A DNA stretch of 24,345 nt from Acutalibacteraceae bacterium (GTDB lineage: Bacteria; Bacillota; Clostridia; Oscillospirales; Acutalibacteraceae): positions 1-24,345 of the forward strand of contig JAZUQA010000010.1 in the NCBI GenBank assembly GCA_045605425.1, read 5' to 3'. A program made the position numbers and the translations under genes. Under the pieces are notes generated by a model. That model did not search any database and had not been told where the DNA came from. It saw only the letters and a list, made by a program, of their open reading frames with translations. How positions within the stretch are numbered: position 1 is the first letter of the stretch; each line of letters begins with the position of its first letter. Below are positions 5,790 to 22,599 of this stretch, one piece after another.

Positions 5790-5900
5790 CCTTGTATCGC
5801 AGTGTCCGAGTAATTCGGACACTTTTTTATTTTTGCGCCTGTTTTTAAAAAAGCATTGTTGCAAAGGTGTATTTGAACGAGGGGTGCTACCGGTTTTGTA
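5790..5900 (-). pseudogene. Degenerate 3' remnant of a tyrosine integrase gene (copy 3)
   Basis: DNA is homologous to 2901-3010 (CCTTGTATCGCAGTGTCCGAGTAATTCGGACAC...AAAAAAGCAT.GT.GCAAAGGT). The minus strand reads ...QQCFFKNRRKNKKVSELLGHCDTR..., compared with ...ATMLFKNGCSIKIVSELLGHCDTR... in the larger pseudogene. Confidence 0.7.
5802..5828 (+). terminator. Intrinsic terminator for add: GTGTCCGA-gtaat-TCGGACAC followed by T6
   Basis: Perfect 8-bp stem and T-tract, 58 nt after the add stop. The hairpin is the reverse complement of the integrase 'SELLGH' coding remnant. Confidence 0.65.
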
Positions 5901-5970: not shown

Positions 5971-6026
5971 AAAAGTTTGCACTAAAGTACGGTGTGCGGA
6001 AGATAAAATTATGATATTGTTATTAT
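5971..6026 (+). promoter_or_regulatory. Box A: conserved 28-nt element AAAAGTTTGCACTAAAGTACGGTGTGCG (5971-5998) plus -10 region (TGATATTGT / TATTAT 6021-6026)
   Basis: The 28-mer is identical to 12055-12082 and 17178-17205. The 22-nt distance from the box end to the second -10 hexamer is the same in all three copies. It lies upstream of the gene at 6089. Confidence 0.7.
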
Positions 6027-6088
6027 GTAAATTTGTTTATTTACGGATTTACCTGTGAATTTATAATTTGTGAAAGGAGAAAAATTCT

Positions 6089-8239
6089 ATGAAATTTTTC
6101 AAAAAACCGTTAGCTGTTTTGCTGACACTTGCAATGGTTATCGGTATCTTTGCGGCAGTTGGTGTTAACACCTCTGCGGCAGAACCGGGACTTTGGGTAG
6201 GCGGTGTTGAGATGAACGATGGCGACTACCTTGCAAACGGTGCAACCGCAACCACAACAACCGAGCCTTCGGGCGGCTATGCTTATTTTAAAGACGGCGT
6301 GCTTACTCTCAACAACTATGTGTATGAGGGCGCCGGCGTTCCTCAAACTAACGGTCATGTGACATGGGCTGAGTTGATCAGTTATAAGATACCGCTGACA
6401 CTCAATCTTAAGGGCGATAATAAGCTTATTTTCGCTCCTGATTCAGAAGAAATCTCCACTTGCTATGCTGTCAGCAGTTACGATGCATATGACAGTAACC
6501 TTACGGTTGAAGGAGACGGCAAGCTGAGTACAAATGCTAGAAGGATACTTTATTCAGACGTATCTGATATAACTGTCAACGGCGGCATAATTGAAGGCAC
6601 TATATACGCGCTGAATAAAAACATTACTATCAATGATGGTTATATTATAGGTATTATATATGCAAACGGCAGAATTGTAATCAACGGCGGTACAGTTTAT
6701 GGTGGAGATATCTCTTCATACAATGCTATTACTATCAACGGCGGTAATATTCTCGCTGTAAACCGCACTGAATATGATGATGATACAGATAGATATGCAA
6801 TACAGGTTGAAGATGAAGAACCTGCTGATTCTATCACTTTCGCTCCCTCACTTGTAATCAAGGCTTCAACAGAGCCTTACGGCGAGCTTGTTGATTACGT
6901 AGCAGAAAATCATAAGGATTACGATATGATAGTAATCGGCGATATTCACTTCTGTGATGTCGCACTTGTTGAAGGTACAGAGGCTGACTGCGAAAACGAC
7001 GGCTACAAGCCATACTACGAGTGCGAGTGCGGCAAGTGCTATCTTGACGAAAACTGCGAAGAAGAGATTGCAGACATTAACGAATGGAAGTCGGGCGACG
7101 GTTTAATCCCCGCACTCAATCACCCCGAAAGAACAGACACTGTTGTAACAGAGGCCACCTGTAGCAAGGAAGGCGTTATTGAAACAACCTGCGATATCTG
7201 CGGTGACGTTATTGCCACAACTGCTATTGAAAAGCTTCCTCACGCTGAAACTATCGACGTGCCCACAACAAAGCCCACCTGCACGGATGCAGGCATTATC
7301 GAAACCTTCTGCACAGAGTGCGGCGAAAAGACAGCTACAAAGCCCGTTGAGTCCACAGGACACGACGAAGGAATCTGGAAGGTCGATTTTGAAGCAACAG
7401 CAGAGCACGACGGTCAGATGACACGTTACTGCACAAAGTGTAATGCAGTGCTTGAAACCAAGACATTTGAGAAGCACACACATACAGAGGGCTATACAAA
7501 GACAATCCCCGCAACCTGCACACAGGATGGCGAAAAGGCTACATTCTGCGCTGAATGCGGCACATGCTACAAAACAGAAGTAATCGAAAAGACAGGTCAC
7601 GGTGAAACAGTTGAAACAGTTTCCGTTAAGCCCACCTGCACACAGGCAGGCGAAAATGTCAAGTACTGTAAGGATTGCGGCGTTGCAGTTGAAACAGTGG
7701 TTGTTGAAGCAACAGACCATGCATGGAGTGGTTACAGCACAAATGCTAACGGCTCACACTCCAAAACCTGCTACAACTGCGGTGTTGAGGAAAAAGAAAA
7801 CTGCACATACACAGCAACTTCAACTGCATCAACCTGCCTTGAAAGCGGCTACACAAAGCACGAGTGCGACGTTTGCGGTCACAGCTACATTGACAGCGAA
7901 ACTCCGGCTCTCGGTCACAAGTGGGGTAAGTGGACAGACGACGCTAACGGTACAACTCACACAAGAGTATGTGATGCTTGCGGCGAAAAAGAAACTCACG
8001 ACCACGAGTGGGGTGAGTGGATATATAACGAGGACGGTACTTTCACAGAAAACGGCACCAAGACAAGAGCTTGTGCAATCTGCGGTGCTGAAGAAACTGA
8101 TACAGCTCACCACACATCCGATATCTGCAGATTCTTCTATCCCATAATCTGCTTTGTTGGTAACATTGTTCACAAGATTCTTTATACCCTTACACTTGAT
8201 TGGCTCTTCCCCGAAATTACAATCAAACCCGAGTTTTAA
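6089..8239 (+). CDS. Secreted/cell-surface protein: signal peptide, beta-helix-like N-terminal domain, ~10 Cys3-His repeat units, C-terminal hydrophobic tail
   Basis: RBS AAAGGAGA. Signal peptide MKFFKKPLAVLLTLAMVIGIFAAVGVNTSA/AEP. The segment from residues ~150-230 is rich in 'I.INGG.I' repeats. From ~6950 to 8110 there are repeats of the form H-x(10-13)-C-x4-G-x4-C-x2-CG, for example HAETIDVPTTKPTCTDAGIIETFCTECGEKTATKPVESTG. The tail is ...ICRFFYPIICFVGNIVHKILYTLTLDWLF. Confidence 0.8.
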   Translation: MKFFKKPLAVLLTLAMVIGIFAAVGVNTSAAEPGLWVGGVEMNDGDYLANGATATTTTEPSGGYAYFKDGVLTLNNYVYEGAGVPQTNGHVTWAELISYKIPLTLNLKGDNKLIFAPDSEEISTCYAVSSYDAYDSNLTVEGDGKLSTNARRILYSDVSDITVNGGIIEGTIYALNKNITINDGYIIGIIYANGRIVINGGTVYGGDISSYNAITINGGNILAVNRTEYDDDTDRYAIQVEDEEPADSITFAPSLVIKASTEPYGELVDYVAENHKDYDMIVIGDIHFCDVALVEGTEADCENDGYKPYYECECGKCYLDENCEEEIADINEWKSGDGLIPALNHPERTDTVVTEATCSKEGVIETTCDICGDVIATTAIEKLPHAETIDVPTTKPTCTDAGIIETFCTECGEKTATKPVESTGHDEGIWKVDFEATAEHDGQMTRYCTKCNAVLETKTFEKHTHTEGYTKTIPATCTQDGEKATFCAECGTCYKTEVIEKTGHGETVETVSVKPTCTQAGENVKYCKDCGVAVETVVVEATDHAWSGYSTNANGSHSKTCYNCGVEEKENCTYTATSTASTCLESGYTKHECDVCGHSYIDSETPALGHKWGKWTDDANGTTHTRVCDACGEKETHDHEWGEWIYNEDGTFTENGTKTRACAICGAEETDTAHHTSDICRFFYPIICFVGNIVHKILYTLTLDWLFPEITIKPEF

Positions 8240-8258
8240 TTTAACAGCATAACCCCAA

Positions 8259-8286
8259 GGCGGCGGAGAAATCCGCCGTCTTTTTG
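8259..8286 (+). terminator. Intrinsic terminator GGCGGCGGA-gaaa-TCCGCCGTC followed by T5
   Basis: 9-bp GC-rich stem with one G-U pair, a GNRA-type loop and a T-tract, 20 nt after the stop at 8239. The identical hairpin recurs at 12004-12031. Confidence 0.85.
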
Positions 8287-8425
8287 TGAAAGGTTCAAGT
8301 GTTTCTCTGGAACAGGTCTCTTACCAATTGACCGGGTATTGATTATTATAAACTTTTTGTCAATTGTGGATTTTTAACTTTTTTTATGATATATTTGTAA
8401 TCGGTATAAGAAAGGAGGCGTTAAT

Positions 8426-10087
8426 TTGGTCAGAACAAAGTACAAAACCGTTATTTATTTAACCGGCGCACTTGTTTTGTCTATGTTCGGTATTGTTTAT
8501 AACGGTATAGATTTCCCGCTTTCCGATTCTTATATGAAAAATACATTTACTCTTATTCCTCATCTTATTTTTATTACATTGCAGGTTGGTTGGGTTATAT
8601 CTCTCCAACGCCGCATTATTAACAAGCGAATACGCATTTACCTGATTGCTGTCGGTTTGCTTATGGCGTTCTGGTTAACGGTGCGCACCTGTAAGTGGTT
8701 TTTTGTTTCCGATATGGAGGTTTTGTGCCGCTATTTGTGGTATGCGTTTTATATTCCTATGGTTCTTATTCCTCTTATAGGTGTGTTTATTACAACGTAT
8801 ATCGGTAAATCCGACAGCTATAAAATGCCAAAATGGCTCAATTTGTTTTTTATTCCTGCCGCAGCTCTTCTTGTACTGATTTTCACAAATGATTTTCACA
8901 ATCTCGTTTTTGAATTTCCGCACGGAATTGAGTTTTTTAATGACGATTATACCTACGGTGTCGGTTTTTATATCACTGCGTTCTGGTTTATTGCTCTCGG
9001 CTTCTATTTTGTTACAATGCTCATTATTAAAAGCCGTGTGCCCGGCAGCAAGACAGTTCAGACCCTGCCCTTGGTAATAATGGCCTGCGCCGTTGTTTTC
9101 TGGCTTCTTTATTCATCGAAAATTATCAATGTTGACCTTACCGCTGTTGACTGTCTTATTATTACTCTGCTTCTTGAAAGTGCGATACAAAGCGGACTTA
9201 TACGCTCAAATACGGGCTATAACGAGCTTTTTGAGATTTCAACTGTTGCCGCACAGGTTGTTGACAGAAATTATCAGACCTGTTACATATCTGCTTATGC
9301 CGATGATTATCCTGAGGATGTAATGAAAAGTGCAGCCGAGAAGGCTGTCGACCTTGGCAAAACAATACTTCACAGTAAGCCTGTTTCGGGCGGATATTTC
9401 CTTTGGCAGGATGATGTAAAGCAGATAAAAAGCCTTATGAAAACGCTTGAAGAAACTCAGGAAAGATTAAGCGAAAACAACTTTCTTTTAAGAGCTGAAA
9501 TTGAAATCAAGGAGCAAAAGGCACGCTTTGATGAAAAAAACCGCCTGTATGACCGTATTGCACAGGATGTTGCAATGCAGCTGTCATTGGCGGATGACTT
9601 GATTGCACAGGCTGAAAAAAATCCGGAGAGCGCTAACAAAGCCTTGGCGCAGGTTTGTGTAATCAGCGCATACATAAAGCGCAGAAGTAACCTTCTTTTA
9701 CTCGGGGAGGAAAACAACTTTATTTCAGCAGGCGAGCTTGAATTTTGTCTGCATGAATCGCTTGATAATCTTCGTTTGCTCGGTGTTTTTACATCGGTTA
9801 ACAGCAGCTGTAACGGCTTAGTCAGCGTTGAAAATGCCGTTGCGGTGTACGATTTGTTTGAACAGATGGTTGAATGTATAATTCACGCTGTAAATGCGTT
9901 TATGGTTAATATAAAGAGCAGCGACGGTGTTATCAGCCTTTCACTTCAGGCGGGTGTTGATGAAGACGCTGATCTTTCGGGCTTAACTAATCTTCAAATT
10001 AACGGTGGTAATGTCAGTGTTGATATTGACTGTAACGACATTACGGTAGATATTCTTCTGCCTGCAGGGGGTGAAGAATATGCTTGA
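8426..10087 (+). CDS. Polytopic (7-8 TM) sensor-kinase-like protein, apparently a pseudo-kinase (no phosphoacceptor His, no G1/G2 ATP-lid boxes)
   Basis: RBS AAGGAGG (8412-8418) with a TTG start at 8426. The N-terminal ~260 aa contain 7-8 hydrophobic helices, like the HisKA_7TM-type N-terminal region. A coiled-coil segment EQKARFDEKNRLYDRIAQDVAMQL aligns by eye with the H-box of the next gene (KIRIHSELGQAL), with Tyr in place of His. The C-terminus has a GHKL-like layout but no DxGxG or GxGL motifs. Confidence 0.65.
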   Translation: MVRTKYKTVIYLTGALVLSMFGIVYNGIDFPLSDSYMKNTFTLIPHLIFITLQVGWVISLQRRIINKRIRIYLIAVGLLMAFWLTVRTCKWFFVSDMEVLCRYLWYAFYIPMVLIPLIGVFITTYIGKSDSYKMPKWLNLFFIPAAALLVLIFTNDFHNLVFEFPHGIEFFNDDYTYGVGFYITAFWFIALGFYFVTMLIIKSRVPGSKTVQTLPLVIMACAVVFWLLYSSKIINVDLTAVDCLIITLLLESAIQSGLIRSNTGYNELFEISTVAAQVVDRNYQTCYISAYADDYPEDVMKSAAEKAVDLGKTILHSKPVSGGYFLWQDDVKQIKSLMKTLEETQERLSENNFLLRAEIEIKEQKARFDEKNRLYDRIAQDVAMQLSLADDLIAQAEKNPESANKALAQVCVISAYIKRRSNLLLLGEENNFISAGELEFCLHESLDNLRLLGVFTSVNSSCNGLVSVENAVAVYDLFEQMVECIIHAVNAFMVNIKSSDGVISLSLQAGVDEDADLSGLTNLQINGGNVSVDIDCNDITVDILLPAGGEEYA

Positions 10088-11360
10088 TTTATATAGCCTT
10101 GCTATGGTGCCAAGAGCGCTGTTTATGACGGTTTTGTTTTTACTTTCAACTTTTAATGTATGCTGTCTGCCGAATGTTTTCAGGCGTGGGTATAAGCTGA
10201 TAACCAAGCTGCTGACGGTTGTTTTTATTGTGTTCAGCTTTTCATTTTGTGTTATTCTGACTACCGGGATATACGCCTTGCTTGATGGGAAAGAAATTCC
10301 GCAGTTAAGTCTGAAATTCGGAAGTAATGCGGAATATGTTCTGTTTTTTATGCTTGTGAACAGTGTTTTCCTTGTTCTTATTGTTGTCGGCGAGTACAGA
10401 TATATTAGAAACAGCGTTTCTACATTGTCAATTAAAGAAAGCTTTGACCATCTGCCGACAGGTCTTTGTTTTTCAAAAGCAAACGGTACGGTTCAGCTTG
10501 TTAATCACAAGATGAATGAATTAAGCCATATTATAACCGGTGAAGAGCTGCAGAACGCCAACCGATTCTGGAGAATTCTGTGCAACGGTTCGGTTTTAGC
10601 TGATGTTCAGCGTTTATCCAAGGGAAAGCAACCGGAATTCAGACTCAGCGACGGTACAATTTATACCTTTGCCAGAGAAAAGGTTGAAAATGTTTTCCAG
10701 CTGACAGCCACCGATACAACCGGACTTCATAAGCTCAAAAACCGCTTGCAGAGCAATAACGAAGAGCTTGAGGAAATGAACGCAAGGCTTCGTGCTTACG
10801 GTGAAACGGTTGATGAAACGACAAGGGCACGAGAAAGACTTGAAACAAAAATACGAATTCACAGCGAGCTTGGTCAGGCTTTGCTTGCAACACGCCATTG
10901 CCTTCATCAGCCCGATGCGGATTTGCAGCCTGTACTGAATGCGTGGAAAAGAAATATTGCCGTTCTTCGTACGGAGGCTGAACCCTCGCAGAATACGGAT
11001 TTGCTTCAGTCGCTTATTGCGGTTGCGGAGTCTGCCGGCGTAAGCGTTGAGATTAACGGCAGCATTCCGCAGGATGAAACTGTGGCTTCCGTTATGACCT
11101 CTGCGGCTACCGAAGCACTTACCAACGCCGTGCGTCACGCTCAGGCAACAACACTTTTTGTTGAGTTTACCGAGTCGGATGAGTTTTATTTTGCCCGCTA
11201 TACCAACGATGGCAATGTTCCCGATAAAGAAATTAATGAGGGCGGCGGTCTTGGCTCGCTGCGGAATAAAATTGAACGCTGCGGCGGCGAAATGCATATT
11301 CAGTCTGTTCCGAAGTATGTTCTCGATATATCTTTACCAAAAGAGGTGAGCGGGTTTTGA
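10080..11360 (+). CDS. Membrane sensor histidine kinase, HisKA_3 / NarX-LiaS-DesK class
   Basis: ATG 10080 lies 7 nt after GGGGGTG. GTG 10071 is an alternative start, and either start overlaps the upstream stop at 10085-10087. The protein has 3-4 N-terminal TM helices and a PAS-like segment (FDHLPTGLCFSKANGTVQLVNHKMNEL). The H-box is RIHSELGQALL, the N-box TEALTNAVRHA, the G1-like box YTNDGNV and the G2 box GGGLGSLRNKIE. Confidence 0.85.
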   Translation: MLDLYSLAMVPRALFMTVLFLLSTFNVCCLPNVFRRGYKLITKLLTVVFIVFSFSFCVILTTGIYALLDGKEIPQLSLKFGSNAEYVLFFMLVNSVFLVLIVVGEYRYIRNSVSTLSIKESFDHLPTGLCFSKANGTVQLVNHKMNELSHIITGEELQNANRFWRILCNGSVLADVQRLSKGKQPEFRLSDGTIYTFAREKVENVFQLTATDTTGLHKLKNRLQSNNEELEEMNARLRAYGETVDETTRARERLETKIRIHSELGQALLATRHCLHQPDADLQPVLNAWKRNIAVLRTEAEPSQNTDLLQSLIAVAESAGVSVEINGSIPQDETVASVMTSAATEALTNAVRHAQATTLFVEFTESDEFYFARYTNDGNVPDKEINEGGGLGSLRNKIERCGGEMHIQSVPKYVLDISLPKEVSGF

Positions 11361-11992
11361 TTAAGGTTCTGATAGTAGAAGACGACCCTATGGCACGTAA
11401 GCTCCTTGAAATTTACGTCAACGACAGCTTTGATTACATTCTTTCTCATTCAATAGAAAGCGCAGCAATGGCAGAGCTCTATTGTATGAAAAACGATGTT
11501 GATCTGATTCTTATGGACGTCTGCACGGCAATGGACGCAAACGGACTTGACGCTGCTGCAAAAATCAAGAAGAGCTTTCCGAAAATTAAAATAGTTATTG
11601 TAACAAGTCAGCCGGAGTTCAGCTATATTGACAGAGCACGTGCGGCAGGAGTTGAAAGCTTCTGGTATAAGAGTGCCTCTGCTGAGGAAATAATTGAGGT
11701 TATGGACAGAACAATGGCAGGGGAGTCCGTTTACCCGGACACTACGCCTACACTCAGGCTCGGTTCAGCAATGAATATTGACCTTACCGAAAAGGAGCTT
11801 GAGGTTCTGCGTGAGGTTATAAACGGAGAATCCGATGCGGGAATAGCCGAAAAGCTGCATATGTCTCTGCGTACGGTAAAGGGACATATACAGAGTATGC
11901 GTGACAAAACAGGCTTCCGTAACCGCACAGAGCTTGCCGTAAGAACACGGGAAAGCGGAATTATAATCAACGACCATAAAAAAGAACAATAA
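11357..11992 (+). CDS. Response regulator, NarL/FixJ (LuxR-type HTH) family
   Basis: The TTG start overlaps the kinase stop (TTGA, 11357-11360). Receiver motifs are present: VLIVEDDP, DLILMDV (Asp54), IVIVTS and WYKS. The C-terminal LTEKELEVLREVINGESDAGIAEKLHMSLRTVKGHIQSMRDK is a LuxR/GerE HTH. Confidence 0.9.
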   Translation: MIKVLIVEDDPMARKLLEIYVNDSFDYILSHSIESAAMAELYCMKNDVDLILMDVCTAMDANGLDAAAKIKKSFPKIKIVIVTSQPEFSYIDRARAAGVESFWYKSASAEEIIEVMDRTMAGESVYPDTTPTLRLGSAMNIDLTEKELEVLREVINGESDAGIAEKLHMSLRTVKGHIQSMRDKTGFRNRTELAVRTRESGIIINDHKKEQ

Positions 11993-12003
11993 CTTGCATT
12001 TGT

Positions 12004-12031
12004 GGCGGCGGAGAAATCCGCCGTCTTTTTT
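12004..12031 (+). terminator. Intrinsic terminator GGCGGCGGA-gaaa-TCCGCCGTC followed by T6 (duplicate of 8259-8286)
   Basis: Hairpin sequence identical to 8259-8280, 12 nt after the response-regulator stop. Confidence 0.85.
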
Positions 12032-12054
12032 ATGAAAAAAACTTCAGAATTACG

Positions 12055-12110
12055 AAAAGTTTGCACTAAAGTACGGTGTGCGAAGGAAAACAAATTGATA
12101 TAATTATAAT
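12055..12110 (+). promoter_or_regulatory. Box B: the 28-nt element (12055-12082) plus an extended -10 TGaTATAAT (12096-12104) overlapping a second TATAAT (12105-12110)
   Basis: Exact 28-mer. The downstream 19-mer TTGATATAATTATAATGTA is identical to copy C. It lies upstream of the gene at 12139. Confidence 0.75.
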
Positions 12111-12138
12111 GTACGATTATATAAAAGAAGGTGAATAA

Positions 12139-13806
12139 ATGGCATTTCGCAGGAAAGAGTTTTTGCAGGATGATTTCGGTGAAGAACATATTTCCTCAAG
12201 CGAGCACGTTATTTCCGACGAATATTCTTATCTCGATGAAACATCGGAATATGATGAACGCTTTTTTCATTCTGATGAATATAACCAGGAGTTTACTGCA
12301 GGCTTAAAAGAAAAAGAGCAGGAAGACGAGGGTGAGGAAGAGGCTGAAACTGAAGAAAAGCAAAAAATCAGCTTTCTCAACAAGACAGCCGATGCTGTTA
12401 AGAATATCGGAATTGTTCTTGCTGTCGGCGCAACGGTTGCCGTCAGCCCCATAGGTGACAGGCTGACGCAGTCCTTTACCGAGCCTGTGACTGAACACGA
12501 GCATATTATTTCTTCGGAATGGACATTACATAATGCCGCAAGCTGTTCTGCGGCGGGTGAGGAAGTGTTACTGTGTACCCTTTGCGGAGAAACACTTGAA
12601 ACAAGAATAGTTCCGCAGCTTGAACACGAGGCAGGGGACTGGACAGTCAGCGTTAATGCGGACTGTGTTAACAGCGGTATTGAAATTATACCGTGTATTC
12701 ATTGTAATGAGGCACTCGAAGAAAGAGAAATCCCTGCCGGTGAGCACGGCTCAAGTGACTGGATAATTGATACGGAGAAAACCTGTACCGTTGACGGAGT
12801 AAGGCATAAGGAATGCTCGGGCTGCGGTATGGAGCTTGAACGGGAAATAATCCCCGCAGCACACACCGTTGTAAAGGATCCGGCTGTTAAGGCAACCTGT
12901 AAAAAGGACGGCAAAACAGAGGGCTCACATTGCTCGGTTTGTAACAAGGTTCTGAAAGCACAGACTGTTGTTAAGGGCACGCACGTTGAGGTTGAAGACC
13001 CTGCTGTTCAGGCAACCTGCCAGAAGGACGGTCTTACAAAGGGTAGCCACTGCTCGGTGTGTAACAAGGTGCTTGTTGAACAAAAGGCTGTAAAAGGCAC
13101 TCACGTTGAAGTTGTGGATGCTGCAATAGCGACAACCTGCACAACCGACGGTAAAACACAGGGTAGTCATTGCTCAGCCTGCGGTAAGGTAATAAAAGCG
13201 CAGACCGTTATTTCCAAAACGGGACATAAAACTGTTAAGGATGCGGCTGTAGCGGCGACCTGTACAACAGAAGGTAAAACAGAAGGCAGCCATTGCTCGG
13301 TTTGTAACACGGTTATTACCGCACAGAAAATAATTCCCAAAACAAACCACAATGAAGTAATTGACCCAGCCGTAGCGGCAACTTGTTCCAAGACAGGTCT
13401 TACTGAAGGCAGTCATTGCTCCGTATGCCGTGAAATAATCATTGCGCAGAGTACCGTTGCAAAGAAAGCACATACCCCCGTAACAGATGCGGCTGTTGAA
13501 GCAAGCTGTACATCAGCAGGTAAAACACAGGGCAGCCACTGCTCAGCTTGCGGCACTGTTATAACGGCTCAGCAGACTATTCCTGCATTGGGACATACCA
13601 GAGTAGTAAGAGAAGGCAGTGAACCCACCTGCGACAGTGACGGATATACTGACTATATCTTCTGCCAGACTTGTAAGGAGATTATTCAGGAGCAGGAGGT
13701 TATACCTAAGCTCGGCCATCAATGGAAGGGTGAGCCGTTTACCGGTCCTAACGGTGCTCAGGTACTTACCTGTGAACGATGTGGCGAATCCAAAGAAGAT
13801 TTGTAA
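12139..13806 (+). CDS. Type II membrane-anchored protein: acidic N-terminal tail, one TM helix, 11 tandem Cys3-His repeat units
   Basis: RBS GAAGGTG. Residues 1-85 are very acidic (...KEKEQEDEGEEEAETEEKQK). The TM helix is IGIVLAVGATVAVSPIG. Repeats follow, for example HVEVEDPAVQATCQKDGLTKGSHCSVCNKVLVEQKAVKGT, with the pattern H-x11-C-x9-HC-x2-C. Confidence 0.8.
   Translation: MAFRRKEFLQDDFGEEHISSSEHVISDEYSYLDETSEYDERFFHSDEYNQEFTAGLKEKEQEDEGEEEAETEEKQKISFLNKTADAVKNIGIVLAVGATVAVSPIGDRLTQSFTEPVTEHEHIISSEWTLHNAASCSAAGEEVLLCTLCGETLETRIVPQLEHEAGDWTVSVNADCVNSGIEIIPCIHCNEALEEREIPAGEHGSSDWIIDTEKTCTVDGVRHKECSGCGMELEREIIPAAHTVVKDPAVKATCKKDGKTEGSHCSVCNKVLKAQTVVKGTHVEVEDPAVQATCQKDGLTKGSHCSVCNKVLVEQKAVKGTHVEVVDAAIATTCTTDGKTQGSHCSACGKVIKAQTVISKTGHKTVKDAAVAATCTTEGKTEGSHCSVCNTVITAQKIIPKTNHNEVIDPAVAATCSKTGLTEGSHCSVCREIIIAQSTVAKKAHTPVTDAAVEASCTSAGKTQGSHCSACGTVITAQQTIPALGHTRVVREGSEPTCDSDGYTDYIFCQTCKEIIQEQEVIPKLGHQWKGEPFTGPNGAQVLTCERCGESKEDL
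12862..13593 (+). repeat. Six in-frame tandem coding repeats of 120-123 nt (units 4-9 of the Cys3-His protein)
   Basis: Units of 40, 40, 41, 41, 41 and 41 codons begin with His codons at 12862, 12982, 13102, 13225, 13348 and 13471. DNA strings such as GGTAGCCACTGCTCGGTGTGTAACAAGGT recur. Confidence 0.85.
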
Positions 13807-13846
13807 GATTTTTTAAAGTTAAATATACTGAAAGGATATTAGAATT

Positions 13847-14764
13847 ATGAGTAAAAAGAATAGTGCAAAAAAGGTTATCGGTTTAGTGTTTTCTGTTGTT
13901 GTTATTGCGGTTGTAGCTGCAGTTTTCAATATTTCACGTTTTACGTTCCTGCCTGAAGGCTTAAGGGCAAGTGTTAGCGGCTTTGTTGATACATATTTTT
14001 CAAATGCATCTGCTGTAATCAGCCTTAAATCAGTCGGCGCAGCGTTGCTTTCACTTGTTGCTGCCTTTGTTGTCGGCTATGTTGTTAAGTTTATTATAAA
14101 CGCAATTAAACTGAAGAATAACCGTTCACAGACGCTTCTTCAGCTTTTCGGCAAGTTCCTGGTTTATGCAATTTATATTGCCGGTATCGTTGTTGCTCTT
14201 GGCTGCTTCGGGATTGATACAACAGCAATTCTTGTCGGCGCAGGTGTGGTAGGTATTGTTGTCGGCTTTGGCGCACAGTCACTTGTTGAGGATATTATTA
14301 CAGGCTTGTTTATCGTTCTTGAAGGTGAGTTTGTTATCGGCGATATTATTACTATTGACGGATTTCGTGGTGAGGTTAAATCAATCGGTCTGCGTACAGT
14401 CAGCATTGAAGACCTTGGCGGCAATGTCCGTATTATCAACAACAGCGAAATCGGCTCTCTTGTTAACCTTTCCGATAACGTATCGGTTGCTGTTGTTAAT
14501 GTGCCTGTAAGCTATGATGATGAGCTTAAGGTTGCTGAGGCGGCAGTACAGGAGGCTCTTTCAGAACTTCCGAGCGAATATCCCGATATTTTCAAGGAAG
14601 CTCCGGTTTATAAGGGTGTTGATACGCTTGCCGAAACACATATTGAGCTTATGGTTGTTGCAAACGTTGCTGAAGAGAATATCTATAACGCACGCAGGAT
14701 TATGCAGCGTGAAATCCGCTATTCCTGTGAAAAGGCAAAACTGAATAAACCGTGTAACGATTGA
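13847..14764 (+). CDS. Small-conductance mechanosensitive channel (MscS family)
   Basis: Three N-terminal TM helices are followed by the MscS signature region ...GVVGIVVGFGAQSLVEDIITGLFIVLEGEFVIGDIITIDGFRGEVKSIGLRTVSIEDLGGNVRIINNSEI.... Confidence 0.85.
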   Translation: MSKKNSAKKVIGLVFSVVVIAVVAAVFNISRFTFLPEGLRASVSGFVDTYFSNASAVISLKSVGAALLSLVAAFVVGYVVKFIINAIKLKNNRSQTLLQLFGKFLVYAIYIAGIVVALGCFGIDTTAILVGAGVVGIVVGFGAQSLVEDIITGLFIVLEGEFVIGDIITIDGFRGEVKSIGLRTVSIEDLGGNVRIINNSEIGSLVNLSDNVSVAVVNVPVSYDDELKVAEAAVQEALSELPSEYPDIFKEAPVYKGVDTLAETHIELMVVANVAEENIYNARRIMQREIRYSCEKAKLNKPCND

Positions 14765-14787
14765 TTAAATTAATGGAGCGATATCTT

Positions 14788-15291
14788 ATGGCTAAAATAT
14801 ATAATGAGCATGAAATCAGAAAAGATTACCATATGCTTACAAAAAAGCTTATTGAAAATAATATTTCAATCACCACAATGGAAAGCTGCACATCGGGTCA
14901 GCTTGCCTCGTTGATAAGCGATACCGAAGGTGCATCGGGAATAATGAAGGGTGCATTTGTTACATACAGCAACGAGGCGAAAATCAAACAGGGCGTACCG
15001 GAAGAAATTATTGATAAATATTCCGTGTATTCTTCTCAGACCGCAAAAGCAATGGCGCAGGCGTGCAGTAAAACCTATAATGCCGATATTGGTATCGGAG
15101 TAACCGGTTCAATGGGTAATGTTGACCCGGCAAATGCGGCGGCTTCCGTGCCCGGTCAGGTCTGGTTTGCTTTCTGTATTAACGGCGAGATGTTCGAGTA
15201 TTATATTGAACTTGAACCTCAACCGACACGCTTTGAATATAAGATGGCTGTTGCCAAGGAAATAGTTGACGAGCTAAATAAGCTCATATAA
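14788..15291 (+). CDS. pncC: CinA C-terminal-domain / PncC-family nicotinamide-nucleotide amidohydrolase
   Basis: GGAG lies 9 nt upstream of ATG 14788; the ORF track starts at TTG 14761. The protein contains ...ISITTMESCTSGQLASLISDTEGAS..FKGAFVTYSNEAK...IGIGVTGSMG..., the standalone CinA/PncC (COG1546) pattern, and is about 167 aa. Confidence 0.75.
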   Translation: MAKIYNEHEIRKDYHMLTKKLIENNISITTMESCTSGQLASLISDTEGASGIMKGAFVTYSNEAKIKQGVPEEIIDKYSVYSSQTAKAMAQACSKTYNADIGIGVTGSMGNVDPANAAASVPGQVWFAFCINGEMFEYYIELEPQPTRFEYKMAVAKEIVDELNKLI

Positions 15292-15312
15292 ATGATCTTT
15301 GAGGAGAAGTCT

Positions 15313-15654
15313 ATGTTAAAACCGGTTACAAAGGATTATTCGGACCGCTCAACTTTAAAAGAATTTGAATTTGAATTTTATTGTGATTGCTGTAAAAAAG
15401 CAATTAAAACTCCGATAATTGAATTTAACTCCGGGTTTAAAGGAAAGTTTTTAAGCAAGGAAGTTAAAAAGGCGAGAGACATTATTTATGCAGCAGACCA
15501 CAGCAGTGCTTTTGAAAGAGCAAATATTGAAGCTTTATATGAGCTGAACAGATGTGAAATCTGCGGAGATATGGTTTGTGATGACTGTACTGTTTACGGT
15601 GAAAATTTAAACGGAGGATTTTGCTGCAAAAAGTGTGCAAAGAGTGAAGGATAG
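15313..15654 (+). CDS. Small Cys-rich hypothetical protein (probable zinc-binding)
   Basis: RBS GAGGAG lies 6 nt upstream of ATG 15313. It contains YCDCCKK and a C-terminal CEICGDMVCDDC...GGFCCKKC cluster. I recognise no family. Confidence 0.55.
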   Translation: MLKPVTKDYSDRSTLKEFEFEFYCDCCKKAIKTPIIEFNSGFKGKFLSKEVKKARDIIYAADHSSAFERANIEALYELNRCEICGDMVCDDCTVYGENLNGGFCCKKCAKSEG

Positions 15655-15658
15655 AAAT

Positions 15659-17125
15659 ATGAATAAATTTAAAAAACTTACAATTCTGCATTCTAACGAT
15701 TTGCATGGTGATTTCCTTGCAGAAAATGTAAATGATGACCTTATCGGCGGAGTCAGTATGCTTTCGGGATATGTCAATAAGGTCAGAAATGAAGTACCGA
15801 ATACGCTTTACTGCATTGCCGGTGATATGTTCAGAGGCTCTGTAATTGACTCCGAATTCAAGGGTACGAGCACAATAGAAATAATGAACGCTATTGCGCC
15901 CGATGTAGTTACGCTTGGCAACCACGAAACAGATTACGGAATAGCTCATCTTCTCTTCCTTGAAAAATGTGCTAAGTTTCCGATAATAAATGCAAATCTC
16001 TATATTAAATCCAATTCTGTCCGCCTTTTTAAGCCGCATAAAGTGCTTGAGGTGGACGGAATGAAGATTCTGTTTATCGGCATTATCACCGAAAGTGTTA
16101 TGAAGCAGGCGAGAAACGAGGGTCTTGTTGGCAGTTTTCTTGATGTACACGAGGCTGCCGAAGAAGTCGGCAGAATATGCGATGCATATAACGCAACTGA
16201 TATTGACCTGACTGTTCTGCTCACGCATATAGGCTTTGAAGAGGATAAACAGCTTGCCGCTATGCTTGACCCTGCGTGGGGTGTTGATATTATTATCGGC
16301 GGTCACTCCCATACTTTTATAGAAAACCCTGAAATTGTCAACAATATTGCCGTTGTACAGGCGGGAATAGGTACGGACCAGATAGGAAGATTTGACCTGA
16401 CAATTGATACGGATAATAACTGCCTGAATGATTTTGAATGGCGGTATGTAAAAGTCTGCCCTGAAAACTGCCCGAATGATGAGGCTATTGATAAAATTCT
16501 TGCATCTTATAAGAACGTAACTGATGTCAAGTATAGCCGTGTTATAACCCGTCTTAAAAGAAAGCTTACTCATCCCGGACGATATATGGAAACTGAACTT
16601 GGCGATTTGTTCTGCGATATTCTTGCCGAAAGTCTTGCTCTTGATGTGATGCTGCTCGCATCGGGTGCTATCAGAAATGATTCACTCGGACCTGTTGTTC
16701 AGGTTTCTGACCTTGCGGAGTGTTTCCCTTACGACGGGGACGTAAGACTGCTTTATATAACCGGTAAGCAATTAAAAGCAATGTTTACTTATGTGTTCCG
16801 GGACGAAGTATGGCAGGGGGGCGCAAGCGGATTCTTCCAGATTTCAAAACGTCTGCGTGTCAAGTATGACGTAAAGCAAAGAAAAATTTCAGATTTTACT
16901 TTTGACGGTGAACCGATTGAGGATGATAGGCTTTATAAAGTCGGTATGCAGCAGTTTCATTACAGAAGCTTTCAAAAATATTTCAATTTCCCGCTGAGCG
17001 AAATTGAGGAAAACCATCCGACCAGGGTGGTTGCAACTTCAGCGCGTGTTGTGATTGAGGAGCGTTTGTCTGAATGTCAGAACATTGATAAGGAAATTGA
17101 CGGAAGAATTATTATAAAAGAATAA
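15659..17125 (+). CDS. Cytoplasmic bifunctional metallophosphatase / 5'-nucleotidase-family protein (paralogue 1)
   Basis: ATG 15659 gives MNKFKKLTILHSNDLHGD. Motifs are present: GDMFRGS, GNHETDYG, LTHIGFEEDK and GGHSHT. The C-terminal 5'-nucleotidase substrate-binding domain is present. There is no signal peptide. Confidence 0.85.
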   Translation: MNKFKKLTILHSNDLHGDFLAENVNDDLIGGVSMLSGYVNKVRNEVPNTLYCIAGDMFRGSVIDSEFKGTSTIEIMNAIAPDVVTLGNHETDYGIAHLLFLEKCAKFPIINANLYIKSNSVRLFKPHKVLEVDGMKILFIGIITESVMKQARNEGLVGSFLDVHEAAEEVGRICDAYNATDIDLTVLLTHIGFEEDKQLAAMLDPAWGVDIIIGGHSHTFIENPEIVNNIAVVQAGIGTDQIGRFDLTIDTDNNCLNDFEWRYVKVCPENCPNDEAIDKILASYKNVTDVKYSRVITRLKRKLTHPGRYMETELGDLFCDILAESLALDVMLLASGAIRNDSLGPVVQVSDLAECFPYDGDVRLLYITGKQLKAMFTYVFRDEVWQGGASGFFQISKRLRVKYDVKQRKISDFTFDGEPIEDDRLYKVGMQQFHYRSFQKYFNFPLSEIEENHPTRVVATSARVVIEERLSECQNIDKEIDGRIIIKE

Positions 17126-17130
17126 GTAAA

Positions 17131-17176
17131 AGAGCTGATTTTTTTAACTTTTTTGTTAAAAATCAGCTCTTTTTTA
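17131..17176 (+). terminator. Intrinsic terminator: 13-bp stem AGAGCTGATTTTT / AAAAATCAGCTCT followed by T5
   Basis: Long perfect stem 6 nt after the stop at 17125, followed by TTTTTT. It is flanked by A-runs, so it is potentially bidirectional. Confidence 0.8.
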
Positions 17177-17177
17177 T

Positions 17178-17233
17178 AAAAGTTTGCACTAAAGTACGGT
17201 GTGCGGGGGATTTTAAGTTGATATAATTATAAT
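17178..17233 (+). promoter_or_regulatory. Box C: the 28-nt element (17178-17205) plus an extended -10 TGaTATAAT (17219-17227) overlapping TATAAT (17228-17233)
   Basis: Exact 28-mer with the same 22-nt spacing to TATAAT as copies A and B. It lies upstream of the gene at 17265. Confidence 0.75.
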
Positions 17234-17264: not shown

Positions 17265-18728
17265 ATGAAAAATTTAAAAAAGCTTACAATTCTTCACTCC
17301 AATGACCTTCACGGAGATTTCCTTGCGGAAAATATTGACGACAATCTTGTCGGCGGCGTTTCAATGCTTTCCGGTTATGTGGATAAGGTAAGAAACGAAG
17401 AGAAAAACACAATTTACTGTATCGCAGGCGATATGTTCAGAGGCTCTGTTATCGACTCAGAGTATAAAGGCATTTCAACAATCGAGATTATGAATATGCT
17501 TTCACCTGATGTTGTAACAATCGGTAACCATGAAACAGATTACGGCATTGCACACCTTCTCTTCATCGAAAAGTGCGCTAAATTCCCGATTATCAATGCT
17601 AATTTACATATCAAAACAAACGGCGCAAGACTTTTTAAGCCCCATTATATAGCTGAAATTGACGGTATGAAGGTGCTGTTTATCGGTCTTATCACTGAAG
17701 AAGTTCTTTCACAGACCAAGAATGATGGCATTATCGGTACTTTCGTTGACATTGATGAGGCTGCTGCTGAGGTCGGTAAAATATGTAACTCATATAATGC
17801 AACAGATATTGATTTTACGGTTCTTCTTACACACATCGGCTTTGAAGAGGATAAGAAGCTTGCTGCTTTGTTAGACCCTGCTTGGGGTGTTGATATTATT
17901 GTCGGCGGTCACTCTCATACATTCATTGATGAGCCTGCTGTTGTCAACGATATCGTTATTGTTCAGGCCGGTACAGGTACTGACCAGATAGGTCGATTTG
18001 ATATTATGGTTGATACAGACAACAACTGTATTGACAGCTACACATGGAAGAGTGTTCCGATAAATGCCGAGCATTGTCCCAAAGACGAGGCTTTGGAGAA
18101 TATTCTTAAGCATTATAAAGAGAAGACTGACGAAAAATACGGCAGACTTGTTACACGCTTCAAGAAAAAGCTTACTCACCCTGAGAGAACGAGGGAAACT
18201 GCACTTGGCGGTCTGTTCTCCGATATTATGCGTGAGAGTCTGGGCCTTGATATTATGCTTCTCGGCTCGGGTAGTGTCAGAAGCACTCAGCTTGGTCCGA
18301 TTGTCCTTTTCGCCGACCTTTGCGAATGCTTCCCGTATGATGATGCTTGCTATATGATCAAGGTTACGGGTGAGCAGTTCAAAAGGATGATAAAGCATAT
18401 GGTCCGTGATGGCGTATGGCAGGGTGAACATTGTGAGTTCTATCAGCTTTCAACGGGCTTACGTGTTGAGTATGACAGAGCAACACACACCTTTACACGC
18501 TTTGATATTAACGGCGAGCCTATGGATGACGAGAAGATTTACAAAGTAGGACTCCAGCAGTTCCATTACAATAATCTTGATGACTTCTTCAATATTCCCT
18601 TTGACGAAATTAAAGCTAACGGTGCTCCTGTTATGGTTTCAACATCATGCCGCAGTATATTTGATGAATACCTTTCAACTCATCAGAATCTTGACCGTGA
18701 TATTACAGGCAGACTTGTTATCAACTGA
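17265..18728 (+). CDS. Cytoplasmic bifunctional metallophosphatase / 5'-nucleotidase-family protein (paralogue 2)
   Basis: RBS AAGGAGA. It starts MKNLKKLTILHSNDLHGD and has the same metallophosphatase motifs as 15659-17125. By eye it is very similar in the N-terminal half and clearly more diverged in the C-terminal half. Confidence 0.85.
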   Translation: MKNLKKLTILHSNDLHGDFLAENIDDNLVGGVSMLSGYVDKVRNEEKNTIYCIAGDMFRGSVIDSEYKGISTIEIMNMLSPDVVTIGNHETDYGIAHLLFIEKCAKFPIINANLHIKTNGARLFKPHYIAEIDGMKVLFIGLITEEVLSQTKNDGIIGTFVDIDEAAAEVGKICNSYNATDIDFTVLLTHIGFEEDKKLAALLDPAWGVDIIVGGHSHTFIDEPAVVNDIVIVQAGTGTDQIGRFDIMVDTDNNCIDSYTWKSVPINAEHCPKDEALENILKHYKEKTDEKYGRLVTRFKKKLTHPERTRETALGGLFSDIMRESLGLDIMLLGSGSVRSTQLGPIVLFADLCECFPYDDACYMIKVTGEQFKRMIKHMVRDGVWQGEHCEFYQLSTGLRVEYDRATHTFTRFDINGEPMDDEKIYKVGLQQFHYNNLDDFFNIPFDEIKANGAPVMVSTSCRSIFDEYLSTHQNLDRDITGRLVIN

Positions 18729-21567: not shown

Positions 21568-22599
21568 ATGGGACTTTTTGATAAGAAATTCTGTGACATC
21601 TGCGGTGAGAAAATCGGCCTTCTCGGCAACAGAAAACTTGAAGACGGCAATATGTGTAAGGACTGTGCAAAAAAGCTTTCACCCTTCTTCAGCGACAGAA
21701 GAAGCTCTACGCTTGAAGAAATCAAGCAGCAGCTTGCCTACAGAGAGCAGAATAAACAGACTCTTGCATCCTTCAGACCGAACATCACTTTCGGCGACAG
21801 CAAGAAAATCTATGTAGATACAATTAACGGCAACTTTGTTGTTTCCAACTACAGCCCCAATAACTGGGATGAAGAAAATCCTGATGTTATGCCTCTTTCA
21901 ACAATTATGAGCTGCAACCTCAAGATAGATGAGGATAAGGATGAAATCTTTACTCAGGGTAAGGATGGTCAGAGAGTAAGCTACAATCCGCCCAGATACA
22001 AGTTCTACTATAACTTTATCCTTGAATTTAATGTTAACAACCCCTATTTTGATGATTTCAGAGTTCAGCTCAATAACTTCCGTATTGAAGGTATGGGCAC
22101 AATGGAATACAACAAATATCAGCAGATGGCTATGGAGGTTATCAACACTCTCACACCCGGCAGAGGCGCAATGCCCAATACGGGTATGAATCCCGGTATG
22201 GGCATGAATATGGGCGGTATGAATATGGGTATGAATAACGGTATGCCTATGAATCAGGGCTATGCTCCCGCAAATGCTTATGGCCAGCCCAACCCGTATG
22301 CACAGCAGAATCCTTATGCACAGCAGCAGCCCAACCCCTACGCACAGCAGAATCCTTATGCACAGCAGCAGGCTAACCCATATGCACAGCCCAATCCCTA
22401 CGGTCAGCCTCAGGCTAATACTTATGCACAGCAGAATCCTTACGCACAGCAGCAGGCTAACCCCTATGCACAGCAGAATGCTTACGCACAGCAGCCTGCA
22501 CAGGCTCCTGCTTCACAGAGCTGGGTTTGCCCTGCTTGTAATGCAGCAAATGAAAGTGGTGCGTTCTGCGCTTGCTGTGGTTCTCCCAAGGCTAACTGA
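21568..22599 (+). CDS. Zinc-ribbon protein (DUF4428-like N-terminus) with a Met/Gly/Asn-rich and NPYAQQ-repeat low-complexity region and a C-terminal zinc ribbon
   Basis: RBS AAAGGAGA. The N-terminus is FCDICGEKIGLLGNRKLEDGNMCKDCAKKLSPFF. The middle reads ...GMNPGMGMNMGGMNMGMNNGMPMNQG... followed by about 9 degenerate copies of (Q)(A/P)NPYAQQ. The end reads WVCPACNAANESGAFCACCG. Confidence 0.7.
   Translation: MGLFDKKFCDICGEKIGLLGNRKLEDGNMCKDCAKKLSPFFSDRRSSTLEEIKQQLAYREQNKQTLASFRPNITFGDSKKIYVDTINGNFVVSNYSPNNWDEENPDVMPLSTIMSCNLKIDEDKDEIFTQGKDGQRVSYNPPRYKFYYNFILEFNVNNPYFDDFRVQLNNFRIEGMGTMEYNKYQQMAMEVINTLTPGRGAMPNTGMNPGMGMNMGGMNMGMNNGMPMNQGYAPANAYGQPNPYAQQNPYAQQQPNPYAQQNPYAQQQANPYAQPNPYGQPQANTYAQQNPYAQQQANPYAQQNAYAQQPAQAPASQSWVCPACNAANESGAFCACCGSPKAN
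22262..22500 (+). repeat. Imperfect coding tandem repeats (18-24 nt units, CAGAATCCTTATGCACAGCAG-type) encoding NPYAQQ repeats
   Basis: Read directly from the sequence. The repeats are in frame within CDS 21568-22599. Confidence 0.8.

Follow-up and report, generated by a model that had tools for sequence, protein, structure and literature searches.

A conserved 28-nt box at three promoters of a gut Clostridia locus as a candidate operator of the neighboring LiaR/NarL-type two-component system

The closest described relatives of the system studied here are LiaFSR, VraTSR, and CesSR, which serve the envelope stress response of Firmicutes, and, with regard to promoter geometry, class II activator sites such as the lux box of LuxR, centered at −42.5, and the CRP sites at −41.5. 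Operators of the first group have been described in some detail: the consensus of Enterococcus faecalis LiaR is T(X)4C(X)4G(X)4A (PMC4482077), the CesR motif is TCAGHCTnnAGDCTGA with the core hCTnnAGd, the predicted LiaR motif of Bacillus subtilis spans 28 bp, and in Streptococcus mutans the 16-bp inverted repeat alone is insufficient for LiaR, which needs a flanking A-run (PMC4447274). Here, we analyzed a 24,345-nt stretch of DNA from an Acutalibacteraceae bacterium (contig JAZUQA010000010.1; the window) and within it a 28-nt box, AAAAGTTTGCACTAAAGTACGGTGTGCG, that lies upstream of three transcription units. We consider it likely that this box is the operator of three σA promoters that depend on, and are activated by, the neighboring two-component system. 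It would represent a LiaR/NarL-type operator in a class II position. The three-gene sensor module to which it would belong is undescribed and occurs widely among gut Clostridia.

An exact search of the window recovered the box at 5971-5998 (box A), 12055-12082 (box B), and 17178-17205 (box C), each time without mismatch and on the + strand, as reported in an earlier note on this DNA. No further copy was found in the window at up to three mismatches, and 100 dinucleotide-preserving shuffles gave no match to the 28-mer. Both a repeat search and an alignment of the regions around the three copies divide the repeat into two blocks, the box and, after 13 variable nucleotides, TGATATAATTATAATGTA, which in copy A is replaced by TGATATTGTTATTATGTA. 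Positions are counted from the first base of the box; with the hexamer at −12 to −7, position 57 is the predicted +1. The distances given in the note were accurate, with TATAAT/TATTAT starting 22 nt after each box (at 6021, 12105, and 17228) and the TG-extended hexamers TGaTATAAT 16 nt after boxes B (12096-12104, + strand) and C (17219-17227, + strand); copy A too has a TG-extended hexamer 16 nt past the box (TGaTATTGT, 6012-6020, + strand), assigned by its sequence and by the conserved TG, TAnnAT, and purine at 57. Of the two hexamers, comparison between species shows the first one to be the conserved −10 element, not the one 22 nt after the box that the note had listed for all three copies. 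From this element we infer transcription starts at G 6027 (A), G 12111 (B), and G 17234 (C), all on the + strand. The start codons at 6089, 12139, and 17265 follow the box ends after 90, 56, and 59 nt. As the note had observed, the promoters have a poor −35 element, the slot 17 bp upstream of the first hexamer (5992-5997 on the + strand in promoter A) being GTGTGC, with 2 of 6 matches to TTGACA, and the box lies in its place, at about −29 to −56. Box positions 23-27 (TGTGC), which fall in this slot, may be what is left of a −35 or provide an additional contact. A terminator hairpin precedes each of the three boxes: at 5801-5823 for box A, at 12004-12030 for box B (the terminator of the regulator operon, 24 nt before the box and identical to the terminator at 8259-8285), and at 17132-17175, directly before box C (GAGCTGATTTTT...AAAAATCAGCTC plus a T-run, identified by eye), all on the + strand.

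The box is conserved well beyond the window. An identical regulator is encoded on 10 contigs (Acutalibacteraceae-labeled metagenome-assembled genomes [MAGs] and gut metagenomes), all of which have the boxes at the same places, and in one close strain the flanks of box C have strongly diverged beside a perfect box. Four more distant species, retrieved via the sensor protein and not via the box (67, 61, 52, and 51% sensor identity), all keep the three-gene module and have two to six box-like sites each, all of which have the orientation of the gene they precede and a TAnnAT hexamer behind them at +17 to +22. The core shared by these sites is T(T/C)TGCACTAAAGTAC(R)(R/T)TGT, in which the 12-mer GCACTAAAGTAC is invariant with the exception of one weak T13G site, next to flanks and a 13-nt spacer that diverge. 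A full-text literature search for the 12-mer found no paper. Three of the four species have a further site in front of the sensor operon, an arrangement suggestive of autoregulation; this site has no counterpart in the window's species, where, as the note stated, the region upstream of the sensor operon is without a box.

A scan of the genome collection with the pattern YTGCACTAAAGTACNNTGT (blocks of up to 8 kb) found the core in at least 117 blocks. About 100 of these come from Acutalibacteraceae, “Candidatus Fimenecus,” “Ruminococcus sp.,” and unclassified Clostridia MAGs of ruminant and human guts, and ∼17 are chance matches in unrelated phyla that have no −10; phage contigs yielded six chance matches only. 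In one of the unrelated genomes, Portibacter lacus, three identical matches to the pattern within 900 nt (L036 5811-6690), with no −10 downstream, sit in a longer tandem or dispersed repeat that is unrelated to the box. Box sites occur in at least 82 assemblies of Acutalibacteraceae and related gut Clostridia, with up to seven per assembly. Among the matches listed, almost all real blocks contain genes homologous to those of the module or the targets in the window, and the first open reading frame (ORF) after the site belongs to Cys-rich proteins (41), 5′-nucleotidase 2 (38), the p363-like family (11), p120 (7), p93 (5), CinA (5), the sensor (4), SPFH (3), or further families (DUF6935 proteins, a 128-aa receiver-like protein, and secreted and membrane proteins). 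A position matrix of 114 nonredundant sites, anchored on the 12-mer at positions 9-20, shows conserved T6, Y7, T8, R21, A22, T23, G24, T25, G26, and C27 in the box and, downstream of it, TG at 42-43, TAtAAT at 45-50, and a purine at 57, with an unconserved 13-nt spacer between the two. Because the 12-mer was the collecting anchor, its invariance rests on the sensor-retrieved species and the metagenome loci described below, not on the matrix. The spacing to the −10 is nearly rigid: in a second de-duplication, TAnnnT lies exactly 16 nt past the box at 77 of 84 sites and at 15 nt in 3 more, compared to 2 of 23 chance matches from unrelated phyla and phages. The possibility raised in the note that the 28-mer is a dispersed repeat with no promoter association is refuted by these data, in that the copies found in the window and in related loci are co-oriented with the downstream gene and have a −10 at a fixed distance; real copies among them show neither both orientations, nor promoter-unrelated positions, nor the terminal repeats of a mobile element.

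Several strains differ in what surrounds the boxes. In two of them (L001 2233-5463 and L002 2085-5315), box A is followed by a gene for a 1,076-aa protein with GH3 domains and not by that for the 716-aa protein of the window; the N-terminal part of this fusion resembles the 716-aa protein, indicating that the cargo behind box A is variable. One strain (L010 8870-8915) has a ∼19-nt tandem duplication in the spacer and −10 of promoter C. On two scaffolds (L005 and L008), runs of N lie precisely at promoter C, and many matches of the genome scan lie at contig ends, so that the repeated promoter appears to break assemblies and is a practical source of contig breaks in these MAGs.

The note had seen an imperfect palindrome in the box, GCAC-N11-GTGC centered on GTAC. 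The right arm of this dyad is variable (G26 in 78, C27 in 71, and A28 in 64 of the 114 sites), and judging from the alignments, the functional dyad is most likely formed by box positions 7-22, a 16-bp imperfect inverted repeat with the halves TTGCACTA and AAGTACGG and its center between positions 14 and 15 (5977-5992, 12061-12076, and 17184-17199 in boxes A, B, and C). This dyad is favored over GCAC-N11-GTGC because the inverted repeats of other regulator subfamilies align with it. Set against T-N4-C-N4-G-N4-A, positions 7-22 read T-TGCA-C-TAAA-G-TACA-A, and the 114 sites have T or C at position 7 (69 and 44 sites), C at 12 and G at 17 in all 114, and A at 22 in 93. Moreover, the center of the dyad, ACTaaAGT, fits the CesR core, and the window box has AAAA at positions 1-4. 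The dyad center lies 30 nt before the conserved hexamer, that is, at about −42.5 in a numbering that assumes a start 7 nt after the hexamer.

The proposed binder of the box is the regulator encoded at 11357-11992 (+ strand), a NarL/LiaR-type response regulator of 211 aa with a receiver (REC) and a GerE helix-turn-helix (HTH) domain (Pfam Response_reg, 7e-15; GerE, 2e-13) and conserved DDP and MDV motifs. Its closest solved relatives in a search of the Protein Data Bank (PDB) are Staphylococcus aureus VraR (1e-23) and enterococcal LiaR (5hev; 1e-19), and the HTH domain alone matches best the DNA-binding domain of E. faecalis LiaR (4wt0/4wul), which was crystallized on DNA. The recognition helix, SLRTVKGHIQ, nearly invariant in 31 distinct orthologous sequences of 65 to 100% identity, aligns with TLKTVKTHVS of LiaR and keeps the equivalent of Lys177, a residue that contacts consensus guanines in the LiaR-DNA crystal structure (PMC4482077). 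To follow the helix and its target sites independently of the box, 80 metagenome loci were retrieved by alignment to the sensor family, down to 30% identity. All 10 loci that have the same helix class and enough flank contain the box, and one locus with the helix SVSTVKQHIQ has, three times over, the variant TTGTACGAAAGTATGA. In six helix classes that are more distant, the box is absent, and the promoter just after the regulator gene has a different 16-bp inverted repeat at a distance of 22 nt from the −10, or of 21 nt for part of one class. These motifs were found by reading the promoter directly after each regulator gene, a listing of repeated 12-mers being too noisy. Given as helix and repeat halves, the pairs are ISVRTVKYHVSNIL with CTGTCCTT and GAGTACAG; ISLRTVKFHISNIL with CTGTCCAT and GTGGACAG; VSVPAIRYHITQLL with CTATCATT and TCTGATAG; NISVAGVDKHIREL with GTAAGGAA and ATCCTTAC; IAPGTVKNYIQYML with TGTGCCGT and TTGGCACA, in two copies per locus; and LSAITVRNHIQNML with TGGTTCAT and TTGTACCA. 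By helix type, SLRTVKGH of the window goes with TTGCACTA and AAGTACAA, and SVPAIRYH goes with CTATCATT and TCTGATAG.

Counting that of the window, eight helix subfamilies have eight different repeats, all at 22 nt from the −10 save for the 21 nt in part of one, and some of the seven others have two or three copies per locus. Subfamilies with Lys at the position of LiaR Lys177 all keep C6/G11 of the repeat, Asp at this position goes with G6/C11, and of the two subfamilies with Arg one has A6/T11 and the other keeps C6/G11. The link between the box and a LuxR/NarL-type regulator that the note had drawn thus gains support from two sides, the co-occurrence of the box with the three-gene module and the change of the repeat along with the recognition helix, both of which point to this regulator as the probable binder. 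In our view, no other observation speaks as strongly as this co-variation, taken with the unchanging geometry, for recognition of the box by the regulator of the module itself and for a contact of that regulator with RNA polymerase at a set distance. Across the subfamilies, the first target that is conserved most widely is a ∼128-aa receiver-like protein (M..IV.N.QNGLL.EAI) that has no Pfam match and is absent from the window; its gene directly follows that of the regulator in L027, L067, L071, L083, L096, L102, L106, L114, L124, L128, and L194-L215. Beside one distant homologue of the module (L214, ∼6590-7530) lies a CRISPR-like array of ∼15 copies of the ∼36-nt repeat GTTTGAGAATAGTGTAAATCTATAAGGTAGTAAAAC with a period of ∼66 nt.

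Based on these observations, we propose that a signal acts on a membrane pair made up of the 553-aa seven-transmembrane (7TM) kinase-like protein and the 426-aa HisKA_3 kinase and that the kinase would then phosphorylate the regulator at Asp54. A dimer of the regulator would bind box positions 7-22, whose 16-bp imperfect inverted repeat has the form known from the LiaR family, and from this site, ∼42.5 bp upstream of the predicted start, it would overlap and replace the −35 element in a class II-like manner and recruit RNA polymerase to the TG-extended −10 located 16 nt downstream of the box. Three units would be coactivated in this way, namely, a Cys-rich gene, an operon with Cys-rich, MscS, CinA, and 5′-nucleotidase genes, and an operon with 5′-nucleotidase, SPFH, DUF4428, and zinc-ribbon genes, and a regulon that is compact and local to this locus is plausible. 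The geometry agrees with a class II promoter, with a weak −35 that is overlapped, a center near −42.5, and identical spacing in 77 of 84 sites, and VraR is reported to contact sigma in work cited in PMC4482077. Several observations weigh against this reading. The co-variation covers a handful of subfamilies and an ungapped helix alignment, and the window copies have G, not A, at position 22 of T-N4-C-N4-G-N4-A. The LiaR sites of E. faecalis lie further upstream, at −77 to −120 in the published numbering of the liaXYZ upstream region, so that simple inheritance from LiaR does not account for the class II geometry of the window. A box in front of the sensor operon is missing from the window's species but present in others, and further copies of the box in the genome, and hence another regulator, are possible, the scan comprising the matches listed only. 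Finally, a TG-extended −10 can work without a −35, and a protein bound at this place could also repress.

This last point leads to the alternative that survives best, although we regard it as unlikely: the same regulator, on the same site, would act as a repressor that covers the −35 region of self-sufficient TG-extended promoters and keeps RNA polymerase out until the signal removes it. The earlier note had raised this option too, and TG-extended promoters can indeed be active without a −35; the TG is present at 44 of 84 nonredundant sites (T42 in 91 and G43 in 70 of the 114 sites of the matrix), and S. mutans LiaR represses hrcA (PMC4447274). Yet roughly half of the sites have neither a TG nor a usable −35, and LiaR, VraR, and CesR mainly activate their regulons. 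Spacing that is rigid to the single base pair across species and subfamilies is what contact with the polymerase would require, whereas occlusion tolerates looser placement. It is on these grounds that binding by the regulator is more probably activating than repressing.

A different binder of the box, either a global factor or a membrane-tethered 7TM-GerE protein, is less probable still. A protein of the latter kind is encoded next to the module in one related locus, where a 321-aa fusion of HisKA_7TM with a GerE HTH lies within the island of one species (L013 15204-16169, − strand); its domains would mark it as a membrane-tethered relative of the system with only one component. This extra gene, in addition to the fact that the genome scan covers only the matches listed, gives the idea some room, but the gene is present in just one of the four sensor-retrieved species, and the response regulator is the only DNA-binding protein consistently beside the boxes. 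The co-variation of the inverted repeat with the helix of this very regulator, over eight subfamilies, is likewise difficult to reconcile with another binder.

The note had further argued that the identity of the boxes reflects selection and not recent segment duplication. Selection is borne out, since the core is invariant across species beside free flanks and the flanks of boxes A, B, and C diverge, but duplication also contributes, a promoter cassette having been duplicated in two sister strains. These strains have a fourth box copy, with two mismatches at its 3′ end, before an inserted gene for a 490-aa secreted protein, followed by TGATAAAAT or TGATATCAT at the same +13 spacing. The terminator in front of this copy and its spacer are shared with box B (L002 9081-9158; L003 8680-8757), which indicates that cassettes of terminator plus box get duplicated, and promoter cassettes seem to be copied as new cargo genes are added. 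Taken to its extreme, this would make all copies a promoter cassette spread by recent duplication or gene conversion, or else a small mobile element, devoid of specific regulatory meaning. The identical 27-nt terminators at 8259 and 12004 fit such a view, as do the identity over 28 nt in this species compared to only ∼20 nt shared by other species and the likeness of the less-constrained box positions, which is higher within genomes (0.70) than between them (0.59), most clearly at positions 21-22 (0.71 compared to 0.41); the spacer shows no such within-genome excess (0.34 within and 0.39 between genomes). Even so, we find this explanation very improbable, given a core that is invariant across species with 42 to 67% sensor identity next to bases that are free to change, a single orientation, a fixed distance to the −10, the absence of terminal repeats and of a transposase, and nothing but chance matches on phage contigs. 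Both selection and duplication contribute to the identity of the boxes, and the full 28-nt identity in the window's species suggests lineage-specific tuning or homogenization on top of selection.

A role for the box as upstream element in a promoter for another sigma factor, or as part of a 5′ leader RNA, is extremely improbable: TTGCAC resembles the −24 element of σ54 and the outer arms TGCAC and GTGCA could pair as a hairpin, but the box lacks the GG of the σ54 −24 element, conservation downstream of it is that of a canonical σA TG-extended TATAAT, the window has no Rfam match, the box lies upstream of a conserved −10, its right arm varies with no compensating change in the invariant left arm, and the terminator directly upstream of each box leaves no obvious promoter to transcribe it. 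A σ54 or extracytoplasmic function (ECF) promoter was also considered as such and rejected, the GG/GC elements being missing in front of a downstream element that is a σA extended −10.

The sensor module consists of three translationally coupled genes between the box A unit and box B, which encode the 553-aa membrane protein with its HisKA_7TM region (Pfam; 8426-10087, + strand), the HisKA_3-type histidine kinase (10071-11360, + strand; 426 to 429 aa, with ATG 10080 as the likely start that gives 426 aa), and the regulator. The kinase has three or four N-terminal transmembrane (TM) helices, an extra cytoplasmic domain, and, in its translation, an H-box (RIHSELGQ) and an N-box (EALTNAVRHA), and its matches in PDB and NCBIfam are DesK, DevS, VraS, and UhpB. 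The orthologues of the 553-aa protein range from 71% to about 50% identity. Its only Pfam match is HisKA_7TM, for which our literature search returned archaeal (and eukaryotic) kinases only, and no invariant His follows residue 158 among 16 orthologues. Its C terminus has no similarity to the partner kinase in BLASTP and no match in a PDB sequence search, and HHalign of the family against the partner kinase gave a probability of 23% in a different register, with an ambiguous His position. With sequence searches of the C terminus empty, a kinase fold was seen only via structure prediction and Foldseek: an AlphaFold2 model (pLDDT 71) has seven or eight TM helices, a small PAS-like domain, long helices like those of a dimerization and histidine phosphotransfer (DHp) domain, and an alpha/beta domain like the catalytic (CA) domain, and its cytoplasmic parts retrieve WalK, DesK, YF1, and DivL (4q20). 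The invariant motif LYDRIAQ resembles the DesK H-box LHDTLGQ with Tyr in place of His, a likeness by motif only. On these grounds, the 553-aa protein is probably a sensor pseudokinase, and it may be a DivL-like one that partners the adjoining true kinase.

All genes of the box locus in the window are on the + strand, and the gene calls of the note were correct, with Response_reg plus GerE at 11357-11992, 5′-nucleotidase paralogues at 15635 and 17265, and SPFH at 20168. The unit of promoter A (6089-8239) encodes the 716-aa Cys-rich repeat protein, and that of promoter B (12139-17125) encodes a 555-aa Cys-rich protein, an MscS channel, CinA, a 120-aa protein, and 5′-nucleotidase 1. The unit of promoter C begins at 17265 with 5′-nucleotidase 2, a 93-aa protein, a 363-aa lipoprotein-like protein, and SPFH/Band_7_1 and extends to at least 24234 with a DUF4428 protein, a 177-aa protein, and a 359-aa zinc-ribbon protein. 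Pfam and NCBIfam scans found no PspA family member among the window ORFs, which have SPFH, DUF4428, and zinc-ribbon proteins instead; a PADLOC scan found no defense families among the target proteins, a literature search for DUF4428 led only to an unrelated phage defense preprint, and Rfam and tRNA scans of the window gave no matches. The C-terminal part of the DUF4428 protein gene (22243-22495) contains degenerate 18/24-nt tandem repeats that are translated into a stretch with abundant Asn, Pro, Tyr, Ala, and Gln. Elsewhere in the window, a ∼90-nt intergenic segment, composed of a terminator hairpin and TTTTAAAAAAGCAT.GT.GCAAAGGT and unrelated to the box, is repeated with 82 to 84% identity at 2902-2991, after an EamA fragment, and at 5790-5880, after an adenosine deaminase gene. 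Direct repeats of 42 nt with 90% identity (2207-2248 and 2821-2862) surround a 137-aa EamA family ORF that resembles half a transporter and may be a remnant of rearrangement.

Gene regulation in uncultured Clostridia of the rumen and gut is almost unexplored, and the present analysis provides a concrete regulon (operator, spacing, predicted starts, sensor pair, and targets) for a system that is so far seen only in these bacteria. The targets suggest a membrane or envelope stress response, possibly combined with nucleotide scavenging, in abundant fiber-degrading gut bacteria. We also put forward, with some reservation, that the trio may form an undescribed three-component family in which a His-less 7TM pseudokinase would gate a true kinase and thereby control a conserved island. 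This island may combine membrane integrity genes (SPFH, DUF4428, and MscS), genes reminiscent of nucleotide or NAD salvage (two 5′-nucleotidases, CinA, and, in one related locus, a nucleoside hydrolase), and variable Cys-rich surface proteins. If this is true, the trio subfamilies, in each of which a distinct 16-bp operator occupies the fixed promoter position, would be a natural data set for the recognition code of NarL-type helices, and the co-variation of helix and operator over eight subfamilies could help to predict binding sites of NarL/LiaR-type regulators.

As an activator-operator arrangement, the proposed system is a standard one that extends known biology without changing it conceptually. 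It shares with the LiaR, VraR, and CesR systems a REC-GerE regulator that is nearest to VraR and LiaR, a box core built as an imperfect inverted repeat of 16 bp that fits T(X)4C(X)4G(X)4A and has CTnnAG in its middle (PMC4482077, PMC4447274), and, in the window's species, A-run flanks as in the LiaR motifs of S. mutans and B. subtilis (PMC4447274). The three-gene module with an extra membrane protein gene before the kinase and a small regulon adjoining the regulator gene are also reminiscent of LiaFSR-type systems. It differs from them in its accessory protein, which is the 7TM kinase-like protein without a phospho-accepting His and not LiaF (no LiaF-like domain was found in this upstream protein), and in its kinase, which is HisKA_3-like but, with three or four TM helices and an extra cytoplasmic domain, not of the LiaS type, and we do not consider the module an orthologue of LiaFSR or VraTSR. 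The targets differ as well, with SPFH, DUF4428, zinc-ribbon, MscS, CinA, two 5′-nucleotidases, and Cys-rich proteins and without a PspA/LiaH homologue, as do the half-site sequence and the position of the site, which in the window overlaps the −35 at about −42.5, whereas the E. faecalis sites lie further upstream. In their layout, the promoters resemble class II promoters, with a dyad site for a dimeric regulator, a poor −35 that is overlapped, and rigid spacing to the −10; in contrast to LuxR, a one-component ligand-binding protein, the proposed binder would be a response regulator controlled by phosphorylation. The 553-aa protein, for its part, is comparable to pseudo-histidine kinases of the DivL type, in which a histidine kinase fold is retained and the phospho-accepting His replaced, and differs from DivL by its 7TM input domain and its separate HisKA_3 kinase partner.

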